Virus genome (UHGV): UHGV-1325408
DNA from: a virus
DNA: 12,867 nt
Strand: one strand, 5' to 3'
The notes beneath the pieces were generated by a model. The model saw only the letters and a program-made list of their open reading frames with translations. It was not told the DNA's origin and ran no database searches. Shown piece after piece: positions 1-12,867 of this stretch. Each line of letters starts with the position of its first letter. Position 1 is the stretch's first letter. Both the position numbers and the translations under genes were made by a program.

Positions 1-3660
<3,660 letters not shown>

Positions 3661-3680
<20 letters not shown>

Positions 3681-4980
3681 TCTCCCGCATATTGCCAGCA
3701 TGGCCTTTAATGAGCCACTGATGCTTGAACCCGCCTATGCGCGGGTTTTCTTTTGTGCGCTTGCAGGCCAGCTTGGGATCAGCCGCCTGACGGATGCGGT
3801 GTCCGGCGACAGCCTGACTGCCCAGGAGGCACTCGCGACGCTGGCATTATCCGGTGATGATGACGGACCACGACAGGCCCGCAGTTATCAGGTCATGAAC
3901 GGCATCGCCGTGCTGCCGGTGTCCGGCACGCTGGTCAGCCGGACGCGGGCGCTGCAGCCGTATTCGGGGATGACCGGTTACAACGGCATTATCGCCCGTC
4001 TGCAACAGGCTGCCAGCGATCCGATGGTGGACGGCATTCTGCTCGATATGGACACGCCCGGCGGGATGGTGGCGGGGGCATTTGACTGCGCTGACATCAT
4101 CGCCCGTGTGCGTGACATAAAACCGGTATGGGCGCTTGCCAACGACATGAACTGCAGTGCAGGTCAGTTGCTTGCCAGTGCCGCCTCCCGGCGTCTGGTC
4201 ACGCAGACCGCCCGGACAGGCTCCATCGGCGTCATGATGGCTCACAGTAATTACGGTGCTGCGCTGGAGAAACAGGGTGTGGAAATCACGCTGATTTACA
4301 GCGGCAGCCATAAGGTGGATGGCAACCCCTACAGCCATCTTCCGGATGACGTCCGGGAGACACTGCAGTCCCGGATGGACGCAACCCGCCAGATGTTTGC
4401 GCAGAAGGTGTCGGCATATACCGGCCTGTCCGTGCAGGCTGTGCTGGATACCGAGGCTGCAGTGTACAGCGGTCAGGAGGCCATTGATGCCGGACTGGCT
4501 GATGAACTTGTTAACAGCACCGATGCGATCACCGTCATGCGTGATGCACTGGATGCACGTAAATCCCGTCTCTCAGGAGGGCGAATGACCAAAGAGACTC
4601 AATCAACAACTGTTTCAGCCACTGCTTCGCAGGCTGACGTTACTGACGTGGTGCCAGCGACGGAGGGCAAAAACGCCAGCGCGGCGCAGCCGGATGTGAA
4701 CGCGCAGATCACCGCAGCGGTTGCGGCAGAAAACAGCCGCATTATGGGGATCCTCAACTGTGAGGAGGCTCACGGACGCGAAGAACAGGCACGCGTGCTG
4801 GCCGAAACCCCCGGTATGACCGTGGAAACGGCCCGCCGCATTCTGGCAGCTGCACCACAGAGTGCACAGGCGCGCAGTGACACTGCGCTGGATCGTCTGA
4901 TGCAGGGGGCACCGGCACCGCTGGCTGCAGGTAACCCGGCATCTGATGCCGTTAACGATTTGCTGAACACACCAGTGTAA
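3661..4980 (+). CDS. C: Head maturation protease / scaffold gpC (S49 ClpP-like family), GTG start
   Basis: Frame of ORF 3526..4980. The lambda gpC N-terminus (M)TAELRNLPHIASMAFNEPLMLEPAYARVFF begins at GTG 3661, preceded by AGGAGGAG (about 3648-3655). Overlaps the B 3' end by 20 nt. The upstream ATG at 3526 lies inside B and is not the real start. Confidence 0.9.
4375..4980 (+). CDS. Nu3: Scaffolding protein Nu3, translated from an internal in-frame start within C (co-terminal with C)
   Basis: In-frame ATG at 4375 (MDATRQMFAQKVSAYTGLSV...) with the same stop as C at 4978-4980. This matches the known nested C/Nu3 arrangement of lambda. Confidence 0.8.
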   Translation: MDATRQMFAQKVSAYTGLSVQAVLDTEAAVYSGQEAIDAGLADELVNSTDAITVMRDALDARKSRLSGGRMTKETQSTTVSATASQADVTDVVPATEGKNASAAQPDVNAQITAAVAAENSRIMGILNCEEAHGREEQARVLAETPGMTVETARRILAAAPQSAQARSDTALDRLMQGAPAPLAAGNPASDAVNDLLNTPV

Positions 4981-4989
4981 GGGATGTTT

Positions 4990-5322
4990 ATGACGAGCAA
5001 AGAAACCTTTACCCATTACCAGCCGCTGGGCAACAGTGACCCGGCACATACGGCAACCGCGCCCGGCGGATTGAGTGCGAAAGCGCCTGCAATGACCCCG
5101 CTGATGCTGGACACCTCCACCCGTAAGCTGGTTGTGTGGGATGGCACCACCGACGGTGCTGCCGTTGGCATTCTGGCGGTTGCTGCTGACCAGACCAGCA
5201 CCACGCTGACGTTCTACAAGTCCGGCACGTTCCGTTATGAGGATGTGCTCTGGCCGGAGGCTGCCAGCGACGAGACGAAAAAACGGACCGCGTTTGCCGG
5301 AACGGCAATCAGCATCGTTTAA
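4990..5322 (+). CDS. D: Capsid decoration protein gpD (110 aa)
   Basis: Translation [52 protein letters not shown]...[10 protein letters not shown] matches lambda gpD. The ORF track's start at 4984 adds MF; I take ATG 4990 as the start. Confidence 0.93.
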
Positions 5323-5342
5323 CCTTACCCTTCATCACTAAA

Positions 5343-5364
5343 GGCCGCCTGTGCGGCTTTTTTT
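5343..5364 (+). terminator. GC-rich hairpin followed by a T7 run in the D-E intergenic region (intrinsic-terminator-like or mRNA-stability element)
   Basis: aaGGCCGCctgtGCGGCttttttt: stem GCCGC (5344-5348) / GCGGC (5353-5357), 4-nt loop, then 7 T's (5358-5364), located between the D stop (5322) and the E start (5378). Confidence 0.35.
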
Positions 5365-5377
5365 ACGGGATTTTTTT

Positions 5378-6403
5378 ATGTCGATGTACACAACCGCCCA
5401 GCTGCTGGCGGCAAATGAGAAGAAATTTAAGTTTGATCCGCTGTTTCTGCGTCTCTTTTTCCGTGAGAGCTATCCCTTCACCACGGAGAAAGTCTATCTC
5501 TCACAAATTCCGGGACTGGTAAACATGGCGCTGTACGTTTCGCCGATTGTTTCCGGTGAGGTTATCCGCTCCCGTGGCGGCTCCACCTCTGAATTTACAC
5601 CGGGATATGTCAAGCCGAAGCATGAGGTGAATCCGCAGATGACCCTGCGTCGCCTGCCGGATGAAGATCCACAGAATCTGGCGGACCCGGCTTACCGCCG
5701 CCGTCGCATCATCCTGCAGAACATGCGAGACGAAGAGCTGGCCATTGCTCAGGTCGAAGAGATGCAGGCCGTTTCTGCCGTGCTTAAGGGCAAATATACC
5801 ATGACCGGTGAAGCCTTCGATCCGGTTGAAGTGGATATGGGCCGCAGTGTGGCGAACAACATCACGCAGTCCGGCGGTACGGAGTGGAGCAAGCGTGACA
5901 AGTCCACGTATGACCCGACCGACGATATCGAAGCCTACGCGCTGAACGCCAGCGGTGTGGTGAATATCATCGTGTTTGATCCGAAAGGCTGGGCGCTGTT
6001 CCGTTCCTTCAAAGCCGTCAAGGAGAAGCTGGATACCCGTCGCGGCTCTAATTCCGAGCTGGAGACAGCGGTAAAAGACCTGGGCGAAGCGGTGTCCTAT
6101 AAGGGGATGTATGGCGATACGGCGATCGTCGTGTATTCCGGACAGTACGTGGAAAACGACGTCAAAAAGAACTTCCTGCCGGACAACACGATGGTGCTGG
6201 GGAACACTCAGGCACGCGGTCTGCGCACCTATGGCTGCATTCAGGATGCGGACGCACAGCGCGAAGGTATTAACGCCTCTGCCCGCTACCCGAAAAACTG
6301 GGTGACCACCGGCGATCCGGCGCGTGAGTTCACCATGATTCAGTCAGCACCGCTGATGCTGCTGGCTGACCCTGATGCGTTCGTGTCCGTACAACTGGCG
6401 TAA
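5378..6403 (+). CDS. E: Major capsid protein gpE (341 aa)
   Basis: Translation MSMYTTAQLLAANEKKFKFDPLFLRLFFRESYPFTTEKVYLSQIPGLVNMALYVSPIVSGEV... ending ...ADPDAFVSVQLA matches lambda gpE. The ORF-track start at 5351 is an upstream in-frame ATG inside the hairpin. Confidence 0.95.
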   Translation: MSMYTTAQLLAANEKKFKFDPLFLRLFFRESYPFTTEKVYLSQIPGLVNMALYVSPIVSGEVIRSRGGSTSEFTPGYVKPKHEVNPQMTLRRLPDEDPQNLADPAYRRRRIILQNMRDEELAIAQVEEMQAVSAVLKGKYTMTGEAFDPVEVDMGRSVANNITQSGGTEWSKRDKSTYDPTDDIEAYALNASGVVNIIVFDPKGWALFRSFKAVKEKLDTRRGSNSELETAVKDLGEAVSYKGMYGDTAIVVYSGQYVENDVKKNFLPDNTMVLGNTQARGLRTYGCIQDADAQREGINASARYPKNWVTTGDPAREFTMIQSAPLMLLADPDAFVSVQLA

Positions 6404-6444
6404 TCATGGCCCTTCGGGGCCATTTTCTCTCTGTGGAGGAGTCC

Positions 6445-6843
6445 ATGACGAAAGATGAACTGATTGCCCGTCTTCAGGTGCTGGGTGAGCAACTGAACCG
6501 TGATGTCAGCCTGACGGGGACGAAAGAAGAACTGGCACTCCGTGTGGCAGAGCTGGAAGAGGAGCTTGATGACACGGATGAAACTGCCGGTCAGGACACC
6601 CCTCTCAGCCGGGAAAATGTGCTGACCGGACATGAAAATGAGGTGGGATCAGCGCAGCCGGATACCGTGATTCTGGATACGTCTGAACTGGTCACGGTCG
6701 TGGCACTGGTGAAGCTGCATACTGATGCACTTCACGCCACGCGGGATGAACCTGTGGCATTTGTGCTGCCGGGAACGGCGTTTCGTGTCTCTGCCGGTGT
6801 GGCAGCCGAAATGACAGAGCGCGGCCTGGCCAGAATGCAATAA
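6445..6843 (+). CDS. FI: DNA-packaging / head assembly protein gpFI (132 aa)
   Basis: Translation MTKDELIARLQVLGEQLNRDVSLTGTKEELALRVAELEEELDDTDETAGQD... matches lambda gpFI. GGAGGAG Shine-Dalgarno at about 6433-6439 upstream of ATG 6445. Confidence 0.9.
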   Translation: MTKDELIARLQVLGEQLNRDVSLTGTKEELALRVAELEEELDDTDETAGQDTPLSRENVLTGHENEVGSAQPDTVILDTSELVTVVALVKLHTDALHATRDEPVAFVLPGTAFRVSAGVAAEMTERGLARMQ

Positions 6844-6854
6844 CGGGAGGCGCT

Positions 6855-7208
6855 GTGGCTGATTTCGATAACCTGTTCGATGCTGCCATTGCCCGCGCCG
6901 ATGAAACGATACGCGGGTACATGGGAACGTCAGCCACCATTACATCCGGTGAGCAGTCAGGTGCGGTGATACGTGGTGTTTTTGATGACCCTGAAAATAT
7001 CAGCTATGCCGGACAGGGCGTGCGCGTTGAAGGCTCCAGCCCGTCCCTGTTTGTCCGGACTGATGAGGTGCGGCAGCTGCGGCGTGGAGACACGCTGACC
7101 ATCGGTGAGGAAAATTTCTGGGTAGATCGGGTTTCGCCGGATGATGGCGGAAGTTGTCATCTCTGGCTTGGACGGGGCGTACCGCCTGCCGTTAACCGTC
7201 GCCGCTGA
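6855..7208 (+). CDS. FII: Head-tail connector protein gpFII (117 aa), GTG start
   Basis: Translation (M)ADFDNLFDAAIARADETIRGYMGTSATITSGEQSGAVIRGVFDDPENISYAGQGVRVEGSSP... matches lambda gpFII. GGGAGG at 6845-6850 precedes GTG 6855. Confidence 0.9.
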   Translation: MADFDNLFDAAIARADETIRGYMGTSATITSGEQSGAVIRGVFDDPENISYAGQGVRVEGSSPSLFVRTDEVRQLRRGDTLTIGEENFWVDRVSPDDGGSCHLWLGRGVPPAVNRRR

Positions 7209-7219
7209 AAGGGGGATGT

Positions 7220-7798
7220 ATGGCCATAAAAGGTCTTGAGCAGGCCGTTGAAAACCTCAGCCGTATCAGCAAAACGGCGGTGTCTGGTGCCGCCGCAATG
7301 GCCATTAACCGCGTTGCTTCATCCGCGATATCGCAGTCTGCGTCACAGGTTGCCCGTGAGACAAAGGTACGTCGAAAACTGGTAAAGGAAAGGGCCAGGC
7401 TGAAAAGGGCCACGGTCAAAAATCCGCAGGCCAGAATCAAAGTTAACCGGGGGGATTTGCCCGTAATCAAGCTGGGTAATGCGCGGGTTGTCCTGTCCCG
7501 CCGCAGGCGTCGTAAAAAGGGGCAGCGTTCATCCCTGAAAGGTGGCGGCAGCGTGCTTGTGGTGGGTAACCGTCGTATTCCCGGCGCGTTTATTCAGCAA
7601 CTGAAAAATGGCCGGTGGCATGTTATGCAGCGTGTGGCCGGGAAAAACCGTTACCCCATTGATGTGGTGAAAATCCCGATGGCGGTGCCGCTTACCACGG
7701 CGTTTAAACAGAATATTGAACGGATACGGCGTGAACGTCTTCCGAAAGAGCTGGGCTATGCGCTGCAGCATCAACTGAGAATGGTAATAAAGCGATGA
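7220..7798 (+). CDS. Z: Tail completion protein gpZ (192 aa)
   Basis: Translation MAIKGLEQAVENLSRISKTAVSGAAAMAINRVASSAISQSASQVARETKVRRKLVKERARLKRATV... matches lambda gpZ. Stop overlaps the U start (ATGA at 7795-7798). Confidence 0.9.
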   Translation: MAIKGLEQAVENLSRISKTAVSGAAAMAINRVASSAISQSASQVARETKVRRKLVKERARLKRATVKNPQARIKVNRGDLPVIKLGNARVVLSRRRRRKKGQRSSLKGGGSVLVVGNRRIPGAFIQQLKNGRWHVMQRVAGKNRYPIDVVKIPMAVPLTTAFKQNIERIRRERLPKELGYALQHQLRMVIKR

Positions 7799-8190
7799 AA
7801 CATACTGAACTCCGTGCAGCCGTACTGGATGCACTGGAGAAGCATGACACCGGGGCGACGCTTTTTGATGGTCGCCCCGCTGTTTTTGATGAGGAAGATT
7901 TTCCGGCAATTGCCGTTTATCTCACCGGCGCTGAATACACGGGCGAAGAGCTGGACAGCGATACCTGGCAGGCGGAGCTGCATATTGAAGTTTTCCTGCC
8001 TGCTCAGGTGCCGGATTCAGAGCTGGATTCGTGGATGGAGTCCCGGATTTATCCGGTGATGAGCGATATCCCGGCACTGTCAGATTTGATCACCAGTATG
8101 GTGGCCAGTGGCTATGACTACCGGCGCGACGATGATGCGGGCCTGTGGAGTTCAGCCGATCTGACTTATGTCATTACCTATGAAATGTGA
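7795..8190 (+). CDS. U: Tail tube terminator protein gpU (131 aa)
   Basis: Translation [71 protein letters not shown]... matches lambda gpU. Confidence 0.92.
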
Positions 8191-8197
8191 GGACGCT

Positions 8198-8938
8198 ATG
8201 CCTGTACCAAATCCTACAATGCCGGTGAAAGGTGCCGGGACCACCCTGTGGGTTTATAAGGGGAGCGGTGACCCTTATGCGAATCCGCTTTCAGACGTTG
8301 ACTGGTCGCGTCTGGCAAAAGTTAAAGACCTGACGCCCGGCGAACTGACCGCTGAGTCCTATGACGACAGCTATCTCGATGATGAAGATGCAGACTGGAC
8401 TGCGACCGGGCAGGGGCAGAAATCTGCCGGAGATACCAGCTTCACGCTGGCGTGGATGCCCGGAGAGCAGGGGCAGCAGGCGCTGCTGGCGTGGTTTAAT
8501 GAAGGTGATACCCGTGCCTATAAAATCCGCTTCCCGAACGGCACGGTCGATGTGTTCCGCGGCTGGGTCAGCAGTATCGGTAAGGCGGTGACGGCGAAGG
8601 AAGTGATCACCCGCACGGTGAAAGTCACCAACGTGGGACGTCCGTCGATGGCAGAAGATCGCAGCACGGTGACGGCGGCAACCGGCATGACCGTGACGCC
8701 TGCCAGCACCTCGGTGGTGAAAGGGCAGAGCACGACGCTGACCGTGGCATTCCAGCCGGAAGGCGCAACCGACAAGAGCTTCCGTGCGGTGTCTGCGGAT
8801 AAAACAAAAGCCACCGTGTCGGTCAGTGGTATGACCATCACCGTGAAAGGTGTTGCTGCAGGCAAGGTCAACATTCCGGTCGTATCCGGTAATGGTGAGT
8901 TTGCTGCGGTTGCAGAAATCAACGTCACCGCCAGTTAA
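8198..8938 (+). CDS. V: Major tail tube protein gpV (246 aa), including the C-terminal Ig-like (Big_2-type) domain
   Basis: Translation [73 protein letters not shown]... matches lambda gpV. GAGGA Shine-Dalgarno at about 8187-8191 before ATG 8198; the ORF-track start at 8168 lies inside U. Confidence 0.95.
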
Positions 8939-8953
8939 TCCGGAGAATCAGCG

Positions 8954-9376
8954 ATGTTCCTGAAAACCGAATCATTTGAACATAACGGCGTGACCGTCAC
9001 GCTTTCTGAACTGTCAGCCCTGCAGCGTATTGAGCATCTCGCCCTGATGAAACGGCAGGCAGAACAGGCGGAGTCAGACAGCAACCGGAAGTTTACTGTG
9101 GAAGACGCCATCAGAACCGGCGCTTTTGTGGTGGCGATGTCCCTGTGGCATAACCATCCGAAGAAGACGCAGATGCCGTCCATGAATGAAGCCGTTAAAC
9201 AGATTGAGCAGGAAGTGCTTACCACCTGGCCCACGGAGGCAATTTCTCATGCTGAAAACGTGGTGTACCGGCTGTCTGGTATGTATGAGTTTGTGGTGAA
9301 TAATGCCCCTGAACAGACAGAGGACGCCGGGCCCGCAGAGCCTGTTTCTGCGGGAAAGTGTTCGACGGTGAGCTGA
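8954..9376 (+). CDS. G: Tail assembly chaperone gpG (140 aa)
   Basis: Translation MFLKTESFEHNGVTVTLSELSALQRIEHLALMKRQAEQAESDSNRKFTVEDAIRTGAFVVAMSLWHNHP...PVSAGKCSTVS matches lambda gpG. Stop TGA at 9374-9376. Confidence 0.92.
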   Translation: MFLKTESFEHNGVTVTLSELSALQRIEHLALMKRQAEQAESDSNRKFTVEDAIRTGAFVVAMSLWHNHPKKTQMPSMNEAVKQIEQEVLTTWPTEAISHAENVVYRLSGMYEFVVNNAPEQTEDAGPAEPVSAGKCSTVS

Positions 9377-9792
9377 GTTTTGCCCTGAAACTGGCGCGTG
9401 AGATGGGGCGACCCGACTGGCGTGCCATGCTTGCCGGGATGTCATCCACGGAGTATGCCGACTGGCACCGCTTTTACAGTACCCATTATTTTCATGATGT
9501 TCTGCTGGATATGCACTTTTCCGGGCTGACGTACACCGTGCTCAGCCTGTTTTTCAGCGATCCGGAGATGCATCCGCTGGATTTCAGTCTGCTGAACCGG
9601 CGCGAGGCTGACGAAGAGCCTGAAGATGATGTGCTGATGCAGAAAGCGGCAGGGCTTGCCGGAGGCGTTCGTTTTGGCCCGGACGGGAATGAAGTTATCC
9701 CCGCTTCCCCGGATGTGGCGGACATGACGGAGGATGACGTAATGCTGATGACAGTATCAGAAGGGATCGCAGGAGGAGTCCGGTATGGCTGA
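8954..9792 (+). CDS. GT: Tail assembly chaperone gpGT, produced by a programmed -1 ribosomal frameshift at 9352-9358 that joins G to the T frame
   Basis: The T-frame ORF (…GKVFDGELSFALKLAREMGRPDWRAMLAGMSSTEYADWHRFYSTHYFHDV...) has no independent canonical start and overlaps the G 3' end. The slippery heptamer G GGA AAG sits in the G zero frame at 9352-9358. T stop is TGA at 9790-9792, overlapping the H start. Confidence 0.85.
9352..9358 (+). promoter_or_regulatory. Programmed -1 frameshift slippery heptamer GGGAAAG (G to GT)
   Basis: Sequence cGGGAAAGtg, with codon phasing G|GGA|AAG in the G frame verified from the G start at 8954. This is the known lambda G-T recoding site. Confidence 0.85.
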
Positions 9793-11915
9793 ACCGGTAG
9801 GCGATCTGGTCGTTGATTTAAGTCTGGATGCGGCCAGATTTGACGAGCAGATGGCCAGAGTCAGGCGTCATTTTTCCGGTACGGAAACTGATGCGAAAAA
9901 AACAGCGGCAGTCGTTGAACAGTCGCTGAGCCGACAGGTGCTGGCTGCACAGAAAGCGGGGATTTCCGTCGGGCAGTATAAAGCCGCCATGCGTATGCTG
10001 CCTGCACAGTTCACCGACGTGGCTACGCAGCTTGTAGGCGGGCAAAGCCCGTGGCTGATCCTGCTGCAACAGGGTGGTCAGGTTAAGGACTCCTTCGGCG
10101 GGATGATCCCCATGTTCCGGGGGCTTGCCGGTGCGATCACCCTGCCGATGGTCGGGGCCACCTCGCTGGCGGTGGCGACCGGTGCGCTGGCGTATGCCTG
10201 GTATCAGGGTAACTCAACCCTGTCCGATTTCAACAAAACGCTGGTCCTTTCCGGTAATCAGTCGGGTCTGACGGCAGATCGTATGCTGGTCCTGTCCAGA
10301 GCCGGGCAGGCGGCAGGGCTGACGTTTAACCAGACCAGCGAGTCACTCAGTGCACTGGTTAAGGCGGGGGTAAGCGGTGAGGCTCAGATTGCGTCCATCA
10401 GCCAGAGTGTGGCGCGTTTCTCTTCTGCATCCGGCGTGGAGGTGGACAAGGTCGCTGAAGCCTTCGGGAAGCTGACCACTGACCCGACGTCGGGGCTGAC
10501 GGCGATGGCGCGCCAGTTCCATAACGTGACGGCGGAGCAGATTGCGTATGTTGCTCAGTTGCAGCGTTCCGGCGATGAAGCCGGGGCATTGCAGGCGGCG
10601 AACGAGGCCGCAACGAAAGGGTTTGATGACCAGACCCGACGCCTGAAAGAGAACATGGGCACGCTGGAAACCTGGGCAGACAGGACAGCACGGGCATTCA
10701 AATCCATGTGGGATGCGGTGCTGGATATTGGTCGTCCTGATACCGCGCAGGAGATGCTGATTAAGGCAGAGGCTGCGTTTAAGAAAGCGGACGACATCTG
10801 GAATCTGCGCAAGGATGATTATTTTGTTAACGATGAAGCGCGGGCGCGTTACTGGGATGATCGTGAAAAGGCCCGTCTTGCGCTTGAAGCCGCCCGAAAG
10901 AAGGCTGAACAGCAGAGTCAACAGGACAAAAATGCGCAGCAGCAGAGCGATACCGAAGCATCACGGCTGAAATATACCGAAGAGGCGCAGAAGGCTTACG
11001 AACGGCTGCAGACACCGCTGGAGAAATATACCGCCCGTCAGGAAGAACTGAACAAGGCACTGAAAGACGGGAAAATCCTGCAGGCAGATTACAACACGCT
11101 GATGGCGGCGGCGAAAAAGGATTATGAAGCGACGCTGAAAAAGCCGAAACAGTCCGGCGTGAAGGTGTCTGCGGGCGATCGTCAGGAAGACAGTGCTCAT
11201 GCTGCCCTGCTGACGCTTCAGGCAGAACTCCGGACGCTGGAGAAGCATGCCGGAGCGAATGAGAAAATCAGCCAGCAGCGCCGGGATTTGTGGAAGGCGG
11301 AAAATCAGTTCGCGGTACTGGAGGAGGCGGCACAACGTCGCCAGCTATCCGCACAGGAGAAATCCCTGCTGGCGCATAAAGATGAGACGCTGGAGTACAA
11401 ACGCCAGCTGGCTGTACTTGGCGATAAGGTCACGTATCAGGAGCACCTGAACGCGCTGGCGCAGCAGGCGGATAAGTTCGCACAGCAACAACGGGCAAAA
11501 CGGGCAGCCATTGAGGCGAAAAACCGGGGGCTTACTGACCGGCAGGCAGCGCGGGACGCCACGGAACAGCGTCTGAAGGAGCAGTATGGCGATAATCCGC
11601 TGGCGCTAAATAACGTCATGTCAGAGCAGAAAAAGACCTGGGCAGCTGAAGACCTGCTTCGCGGGAGCTGGATGGCTGGCCTCAAGTCCGGCTGGAGCGA
11701 GTGGAAAGAGAGTGCCACGGACAGTATGTCGCAGGTTAAAAGTGCTGCCACGCAGACCTTTGATGGTATTGCGCAGAATATGGCGGCGATGCTGACCGGC
11801 AGTGAGCAGAACTGGCGCAGCTTCACCCGTTCCGTGCTGTCCATGATGACAGAAATTCTGCTTAAGCAGGCAATGGTGGGGATTGTCGGAAGTATAGGCA
11901 GCGCCATTGGCGGCG
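9785..11915 (+). pseudogene. H: Tape measure protein gpH, N-terminal ~710 codons only; homology ends at a rearrangement breakpoint (about 11915-11917)
   Basis: Translation MAEPVGDLVVDLSLDAARFDEQMARVRRHFSGTETDAKK... through ...MMTEILLKQAMVGIVGSIGSAIGG matches lambda gpH. After this the + frame reads VAVSVDEVHRIQKTG..., which is the antisense of gene L, instead of the expected glycine-rich gpH continuation. The 865-aa ORF 9785..12382 is an accidental read-through. Confidence 0.85.
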
Positions 11916-11917
11916 TC

Positions 11918-12286
11918 GCTGTTTCCGTTGACGAAGTTCACCGCATCCAGAAAACGGGCATAAACCTTACGCCTGACCACCGTTCCGCCGACCAGACTCT
12001 GCAGATCTTCCGCCATCCCGGTGACCATGCCATACAGGTTAGAAACCGTCAGCGTGGGGCGCGTACTGGTGCCTTTGCCATTCAGTTCGAAACCACTCCC
12101 CTGAATGGGATACGCCTGATACTGTCGCCCCTGCCAGGTGACCGGCTCACCTTTTTCGTTCTGCTCATTACAGAAAAAATAACGTTCTCCACCAACCTCT
12201 GTCAGATCGATTTCCCAGAGCACCACGCTGGCCGACTGCTCCGCACGGGTGCATTCATTCAGTGTTTCCTGTCGGATATCCTGCAT
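11918..12286 (-). pseudogene. L: Tail tip assembly protein gpL, N-terminal 123 codons only (inverted relative to the rest of the module); truncated at the breakpoint
   Basis: Minus-strand ORF 11621..12286 starts MQDIRQETLNECTRAEQSASVVLWEIDLTEVGGERYFFCNEQNEKGEPVTWQGRQYQ...RFLDAVNFVNGNS (gpL N-terminus), then continues as antisense of H for 98 codons. Start ATG overlaps the M stop (TGATG). Confidence 0.85.
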
Positions 12287-12615
12287 CAGTTCACCACCTG
12301 TTCAAACTCTGCGCTGAACTCAACACGCAACATACTGACCCGCGACGACCATTTTGCGCAGGTCACCTTTATCTGCCGGTAGCCATAAGGCGGCGTCCAC
12401 AGAAAGGATTTCCAGCCCCCGTGCTCAGCCAGAAACGACTCAAGCGCCGTGGCCTCCCAACGGGGAACAGAAAGCGTCACGCTGTACGTTTTCAGGTCGG
12501 CATTCAGCCCGGCAGGCGCTCGCTGGGAATAGCCATCACCAAAGCGCACCTTTCTTACGGAAGGGGCCGAAGCCACATCCATACCGGGTTTCACTTTCCA
12601 GCGGAAGGTTTTCAT
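12286..12615 (-). CDS. M: Tail tip protein gpM (109 aa), complete but in inverted orientation relative to upstream tail genes
   Basis: Translation MKTFRWKVKPGMDVASAPSVRKVRFGDGYSQRAPAGLNADLKTYSVTLSVPRWEATALESFLAEHGGWKSFLWTPPYGYRQIKVTCAKWSSRVSMLRVEFSAEFEQVVN matches lambda gpM. ATGA overlap with the stop of the H C-terminal fragment. Confidence 0.9.
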   Translation of the reverse strand: MKTFRWKVKPGMDVASAPSVRKVRFGDGYSQRAPAGLNADLKTYSVTLSVPRWEATALESFLAEHGGWKSFLWTPPYGYRQIKVTCAKWSSRVSMLRVEFSAEFEQVVN

Positions 12616-12749
12616 CGTCCACCTCCGGAGAACAGACCACCATCGCGCATCTGCCCGGTCACAACATCCATTGCCGCCTTACGGGCTACGTCATAAACAG
12701 CCTTCAGTGCCTGTGGCCCTATCTGACCGTTCGTGCCGTCGTTGTTTAT
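12612..12749 (-). pseudogene. H: Tape measure protein gpH, C-terminal 45 codons (detached fragment on the - strand)
   Basis: The last 45 residues of minus ORF 12612..12845 (INNDGTNGQIGPQALKAVYDVARKAAMDVVTGQMRDGGLFSGGGR) match the gpH C-terminus. The preceding 32 residues (MPVSIIPEPKSFAISALTRLYTILIVLGKPWG) come from unrelated DNA. Confidence 0.85.
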
Positions 12750-12750
12750 C

Positions 12751-12867
12751 CCCCAAGGCTTGCCTAATACGATCAATATCGTATACAGCCTCGTTAGAGC
12801 CGATATGGCGAATGACTTCGGCTCCGGTATTATGGATACAGGCATTAATTTTATTTAATACTTGTTG
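12751..12867. other. Unassigned lower-GC segment abutting the inverted lambda block; possible 3' end of a - strand gene whose body lies beyond the window
   Basis: I counted 49 G+C in 117 nt (about 42%), versus the visibly GC-richer lambda structural genes. It is stop-free on the - strand in the frame reading QQVLNKINACIHNTGAEVIRHIGSNEAVYDIDRIRQALG, and does not continue the gpH sequence expected here. Confidence 0.4.

Follow-up and report, generated by a model that had tools for sequence, protein, structure and literature searches.

What is the GC-poor DNA that closes this phage sequence, and how did it come to lie against the 3′ end of a lambda-like tape-measure gene? The window (the whole stretch of DNA analysed here, 12,867 nucleotides of the virus genome record UHGV-1325408) ends in 117 nt (12751–12867) that a sequence-only reading had set apart as unrecognised DNA, beyond an abrupt break at 12750/12751 in the match to the tape-measure protein gpH. 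Below, we trace this DNA to an accessory gene of the same kind of prophage, locate the break, and consider how the two came to be joined. The outcome is most likely a chimeric contig end rather than new biology.

The whole window was aligned to the prophage of Escherichia coli S19-651 (NZ_CP075852.1; region 1296492–1329411), which served as the reference. The alignment, from which the block identities, junction positions and microhomologies are read directly, divides the window into four blocks and three junctions that are not present in the reference (J0, J1 and J2), with all of the DNA coming from one lambda-like prophage. A short head block (1–127, + strand) is followed by a collinear lambdoid late region (127/128–11915, + strand), which runs from about codon 58 of A through W, B, C/Nu3, D, E, FI, FII, Z, U, V, G and T into H (codons 1 to about 711). 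Beyond it come an inverted block, designated L′-M-H3′ (11911–12746, − strand), and the tail block (12741–12867, − strand). The collinear region was recovered from window position 127 as one 11,793-nt alignment with 98.3% identity, 197 mismatches and 0 gap openings, and the open reading frames up to J1 correspond one-to-one to the gene order of the reference. The same block is 98.6% identical to positions 884–12670 of lambda (J02459), window position 127 corresponding to lambda 884. Near the junctions the match to S19-651 is almost perfect: the final 920 nt of the forward block contain a single mismatch.

Elsewhere, divergence from S19-651 is unevenly distributed: most 500-nt bins contain roughly 5–21 mismatches, and the stretches 6500–8500 and 10500–11918 contain nearly none. 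This is the usual lambdoid mosaicism. The S19-651 element is apparently an intact lambdoid prophage at the ompT/envY (DLP12-type) locus, and its accessory genes include iss, an ompC-like porin, lom, a SAM methyltransferase, an alpha/beta hydrolase and ompT.

At the right-hand end of the window, two exact-match blocks meet. L′-M-H3′ matches the reference exactly up to position 12746, and the match to the hydrolase gene is exact from position 12741; the overlap between the two, GTTGTT, is the 6-nt microhomology of J2 (12741–12746), at which the 3′ part of H on the − strand passes into hydrolase DNA. The partners of this junction lie 12.8 kb apart in the reference and are joined − to +. A true breakpoint at the window end had thus been correctly perceived, with its position displaced by a few bases from 12741–12746 to 12750/12751 because imperfect homology flanks GTTGTT (15/17 positions in GTC(A)GTTGTT[T/A]ATC[C/A]CC). 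The same flanking homology accounts for the claim that the gpH match begins exactly at the INNDG codon: the ‘I’ is a chance product of it, encoded by ATA here and by ATT in native H.

The compositional step is equally clear. The last 117 nt have a GC content of 41.9%, close to the 42% first estimated, compared with 56.6–56.9% for the rest of the window. Among the 12,634 other 117-nt stretches in 1–12750 the mean is 56.9% and the minimum 42.7%, which places the tail below all of them. The observation that the tail does not encode the expected upstream gpH residues also holds, as the sequence with which native H continues in the reference (…AATCACCACATGGTTATTC…; also …GTTGTTAATCACCACATGGTTATTC…) does not resemble it. 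J2 is therefore a breakpoint and not a cluster of substitutions, and we reject the alternative, raised at the outset, that point mutations had merely obscured an otherwise continuous H gene.

The tail DNA could be assigned by nucleotide identity. Positions 12741–12867, exactly 127 nt, match the hydrolase gene of E. coli S19-651 at 100% identity (0 mismatches), covering codons 154–195 of 494. A sensitive blastn search with the 117-nt tail returned 11 phage records, all at 100% and including ev243, 2G7b, Turner and PhiR26_1; none of the 11 is lambda itself. The annotations under these matches read ‘putative lactone hydrolase, alpha/beta fold family’, ‘alpha/beta hydrolase’ or ‘hypothetical protein’. 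Among 5,426 complete genomes of E. coli, 1,525 also carry the segment, at no less than 98.5% identity and under the annotation ‘alpha/beta hydrolase’, some of them in up to 4 copies. In phage ev243 the gene order is tail fibre, methyltransferase, tfa, hydrolase, OmpT and integrase; in E. coli S19-651 the hydrolase gene lies between a tfa remnant and ompT, and the order ends at ompT/envY.

The reference hydrolase (WP_001226375.1; ‘putative lactone hydrolase’ VUF53540.1) is a protein of 494 amino acids with what looks like an N-terminal signal peptide, suggesting that it may be secreted. The 42-residue fragment in the window is too short for a Pfam score of its own; the domains, scored on the full-length reference protein, are Abhydrolase_1 (PF00561; 3.1e-33) and a TAP-like C-terminal domain (PF08386; 1.7e-14). 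Read on the minus strand, the tail gives QQVLNKINACIHNTGAEVIRHIGSNEAVYDIDRIRQALGDKQ, residues 154–195 of this protein, free of stops, and the frame continues for 16 codons into H-derived DNA before it terminates. The stop-free minus-strand frame noticed previously is thus real; it had seemed to read like the end of a globular protein, and is in fact an internal stretch. The fragment ends 7 residues before an AYSYG motif, the putative nucleophile elbow of the hydrolase. With 42.3% GC in the hydrolase coding sequence and 36–49% in its neighbourhood, the low GC of the tail is the native composition of this accessory region of the prophage.

On the evidence of sequence identity, then, the tail is an internal piece of the prophage's own accessory alpha/beta-hydrolase gene and not foreign DNA. 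It shares with that gene its nucleotide sequence (100%), its reading frame and its low GC, and so belongs to the hydrolase family, displaced from its native place. What differs is the context: in place of the order tail fibre/tfa, hydrolase, ompT, and int or envY, the fragment lies immediately next to the 3′ end of H, on the opposite strand. It comprises only 42 of 494 codons, is cut before AYSYG and is fused to H-derived DNA, and therefore no functional hydrolase gene is encoded in the window. Of the sources that the sequence-only reading had offered for the tail, another part of the phage, for example its AT-richer non-essential region, was the right one, and can now be specified as the hydrolase gene between the tail-fibre genes and ompT/int. 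An insertion element and vector DNA drop out, and host DNA applies only in the sense of a prophage-borne gene in E. coli chromosomes.

The block to which the tail is joined is itself out of place. J1 (11911–11915) connects H on the + strand to L on the − strand through the 5-nt microhomology CGGCG, with imperfect homology of 9/10 positions in CGGCG[G/T]CGC; its partners, joined + to −, are 1,120 bp apart in the reference. The inverted block that begins here is 836 nt long, shows 0 mismatches to the S19-651 prophage, and contains the first 376 nt of L (11911–12286), all of M (12286–12615) and about the last 45 codons of H (12612–12746). Absent from the window are H codons from about 712 to 805, together with everything from the middle of L to the middle of the hydrolase gene. 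GC skew changes sign at 11911–12746.

These joins generate reading frames that could mislead. An 865-amino-acid open reading frame (9785–12382, + strand) consists of H codons 1–711 followed by about 154 stop-free codons read antisense through L and M; its tape-measure Pfam domains end at residue 701. Its length is near that of native H (849–853 amino acids), and a gene caller would take it for a full-length tape-measure protein. Across J2, a spurious 77-amino-acid frame (12612–12845, − strand) extends the H frame upstream, out of frame, into hydrolase DNA. Both of these, like the truncated hydrolase frame, are by-products of the chimeric joins.

The left-hand end of the window carries a junction of a different form. 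The head block is an exact second copy of window positions 967–1093, inside the terminase large subunit gene A (127/127 identical), and diverges from that copy at base 128. The junction between the head block and the collinear region, J0 (127/128), joins one site in gene A to another in direct orientation with a 1-nt microhomology, and corresponds to a jump back of 966 nt to lambda coordinate 884. A duplication unit of 967 nt would frameshift A.

The exact matches at the two ends of the window, that is, the head (1–127) and the tail (12741–12867, counted from the first base that is possibly hydrolase-derived and thus including the shared GTTGTT), are both exactly 127 nt long. This number is the largest k of SPAdes, and contigs from de Bruijn assemblies characteristically share exactly k bases with their graph neighbours. 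In a graph with k = 127, the first 127-mer lying wholly past a junction would be the vertex at which the junction edge merges with the normal path, and a contig trimmed at such merge vertices would look like the window at both ends: past J0 and past J2 the terminal block has a length of exactly k, and the first and last 127 nt likewise belong wholly to the ‘other’ sequence at the junction. Two independent and exact coincidences at 127 nt would otherwise be very unlikely.

We infer that the window is a whole short-read contig whose ends lie on branch nodes of a de Bruijn graph with k = 127, with the assembler and the value of k deduced from these ends. A window equal to one entire contig would account for the odd length of 12,867 and leave no parent contig beyond it. 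Because both ends lie exactly one k-mer past a junction, normal sequence would coexist at J0 and J2, and the un-rearranged A and hydrolase sequences were probably both present in the sample. Terminal repeats of 127 bp have been published for a SPAdes phage contig (PMC9009655). In contrast to the contig of a circular genome, the ends of the window are not copies of each other, so the window is not a circular genome; its head repeats an internal segment, which corresponds to a loop in the graph.

The junctions were then sought in other sequences. Megablast searches with junction-spanning stretches found J0, J1 and J2 spanned in none of the 5,426 complete genomes of E. coli, and J1 and J2 in none of the phage or plasmid records. 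For the same two junctions, 36–40-mers across the join gave 0 exact matches in the collections viral_contigs, genome_contigs and metagenome_contigs; for J0, the junction word gave 0 exact matches in viral_contigs, the one collection searched with it. The inverted L′-M-H3′ arrangement occurs in 0 of the 5,426 E. coli genomes, and no exact protein is on record for the chimeric H frame, the 77-amino-acid junction frame or the truncated hydrolase frame. Apparent full-length matches to window 1–330 and 90–165 were discarded, each consisting of two separate pieces that had been joined; the pieces for 1–330 span 967 bp of the record. The lambda prophages of J53 and BLR(DE3) match window 1–330 at 100% identity.

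How, then, did the blocks come together? We think it reasonably probable that the arrangement is an artefact of in vitro or assembly origin, in which template-switch chimeric molecules, presumably made in vitro, were captured at contig ends lying on branch nodes of the assembly graph. An internal piece of the hydrolase gene, normally about 12.8 kb downstream next to ompT, is fused, with its relative orientation reversed, to the 3′ end of H by means of the 6-nt microhomology. That H fragment is part of the 836-nt inverted L′-M-H3′ block, joined in turn to forward H by means of the 5-nt microhomology. At the branch nodes, reads carrying the junctions would leave or rejoin the normal prophage path. 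The microhomologies of 1–6 nt are far below k, and therefore the joins were not made by the assembler; molecules bearing the junctions were sequenced, and these would most likely be in vitro template-switch chimeras. It is unlikely that the phage genome carries the junctions as a fixed feature.

The form of the junctions bears on this account. A microhomology of at least 5 nt is expected at 0.46% of random blunt joins (0.0046 per junction), and at two of three junctions with a probability of about 6e-5; its occurrence at two of the three therefore favours template switching primed by annealing over ligation. In DNA made by phi29 multiple displacement amplification (MDA), an inversion with a deletion between the joined parts characterises 85% of chimeras; the parts mostly lie less than 10 kb apart, priming is at 2–21 complementary nucleotides, and chimeras arise about once per 22 kb (Lasken & Stockwell 2007; PMC1855051). 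J1 and J2 share the A′C form of these chimeras, with an inverted second segment, an intervening deletion (1,120 bp at J1 and 12.8 kb at J2) and priming lengths of 5 and 6 nt, respectively, and the partners of J1 are only 1.1 kb apart. The likeness is incomplete, however. The J2 partners, at 12.8 kb, fall outside the range below 10 kb in which MDA inversions concentrate; J0 has only 1 nt of complementarity and is a join in direct orientation, which is rarer among MDA chimeras than the inverted form; and the junctions of the window belong to an assembled consensus and not to single reads as in the MDA study, from a sample that may have been amplified. Other polymerase steps in library preparation can yield similar chimeras.

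The main competing explanation is that the rearrangement is real, which we regard as unlikely but deserving of weight. Here, a defective lambdoid prophage would have undergone illegitimate recombination or replication template switching in vivo, giving an inversion and a deletion plus, in A, a tandem duplication, either fixed or at high frequency (possibly subclonal); H would have been truncated, and L′-K-I-J-lom-stf-tfa lost along with two-thirds of the hydrolase gene (its 3′ part), leaving a tail-less remnant. Prophage decay by deletion is common, and illegitimate recombination at short homologies occurs in vivo in lambda and E. coli, where it likewise gives deletions, inversions and duplications at a homology of a few bases. 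With microhomologies of 1–6 nt, the junctions must in any case exist in sequenced molecules, as they would in a genuine variant, and the 12.8-kb span of J2 exceeds that of a typical MDA inversion. It also counts against an artefact that the contig runs straight through the points at which J1 and J2 depart from the H path, unbroken, as would be expected if no normal path were present there. A path-extending assembler normally prefers the better-supported edge, so the junction molecules may be abundant, and this fits a real variant as well. Yet none of the three junctions recurs in the 5,426 complete E. coli genomes, and J1 and J2 recur in no phage or plasmid record or contig collection searched. 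A real rearrangement would require three independent gross events within about 25 kb of prophage, whereas the 11.8 kb between J0 and J1 have 0 indels and intact genes; three gross rearrangements unaccompanied by small lesions, in an element that is otherwise undecayed, are not what long natural decay would leave. Both ends, one k-mer past a junction, would moreover demand that un-rearranged sequence coexist at J0 and J2. An end 127 nt into the hydrolase gene would need a second, intact copy of that gene in the genome or sample, and the up to 4 copies of the segment found in some E. coli genomes could create such a terminal branch. Spontaneous rearrangements verified by experiment in Salmonella required at least 8–12 bp of homology at their junctions, and 7-bp candidates failed (PMC3411829); the microhomologies of the window fall below this range. 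A particular version, namely MMBIR-like replication template switching in an induced or replicating prophage that left an abundant defective subpopulation with a terminase duplication, a tape-measure inversion-deletion and loss of tail-tip genes, seems to us doubtful; if it were true, the contig would be the record of a phage genome rearranged in vivo, in a complex way, through microhomology.

Two further explanations fare much worse than template switching. Random blunt-end ligation during library construction from a sample with very high coverage of phage DNA could have produced chimeras drawn wholly from one phage, which is what nearly pure phage DNA should give and what the window shows, and J0 has a microhomology of only 1 nt. 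It is nevertheless very improbable, given that two of the three junctions have exact microhomologies of 5 and 6 nt, extended to 9/10 and 15/17, at the low expected frequencies given above, and that the joined sites are 1.0, 1.1 and 12.8 kb apart and not scattered over the genome of about 48 kb. We give next to no credence to a foreign insertion, whether an IS element, a transposon, vector DNA or an unrelated host gene. The sharp fall in GC from 57% to 42% is what first suggested one, but the tail matches, at 100% identity, a gene that this prophage family natively carries, the low GC is that gene's own, and the phage, plasmid and E. coli searches brought up matches to phage or prophage genes alone; the identity of the hydrolase and its native prophage context refute the insertion. 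No similarity to a transposase or vector was found in those searches. An insertion sequence or transposon in particular would be recognised by terminal inverted repeats, a target-site duplication and a transposase; the window shows no inverted repeats of at least 25 nt, and the tail is a hydrolase fragment. We also rejected an invertible segment of the Gin/Cin/Pin type, which would be marked by inverted crossover sites on its flanks, an invertase nearby and relatives with either orientation: inverted repeats of that length are absent from the window, the arrangement is found in none of the 5,426 genomes, and the segment cuts through essential genes.

With template-switch chimeras ending on graph branch nodes as the preferred account, there is nothing new in the locus: the tail is a displaced known prophage gene, and the junction resembles known template-switch chimeras combined with the known behaviour of contig ends. 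Should the junctions be real, the window would represent an ordinary defective prophage, so the finding is ordinary under either explanation. To take the window for a lambda relative that has acquired foreign DNA, or for the source of a novel fusion protein, would accordingly be a mistake. In genome scans, an automatic flag can be set on any contig in which the k bases at either end (here 127) derive from a different locus. A separate observation concerns the GenBank record MW057783.1, ‘Campylobacter phage CJLB-4’ (48,361 bp; host Campylobacter jejuni), which aligns collinearly with 11.9 kb of the window at 98.6% identity, the same value as lambda J02459, and looks like lambda DNA deposited under the name of a Campylobacter phage.
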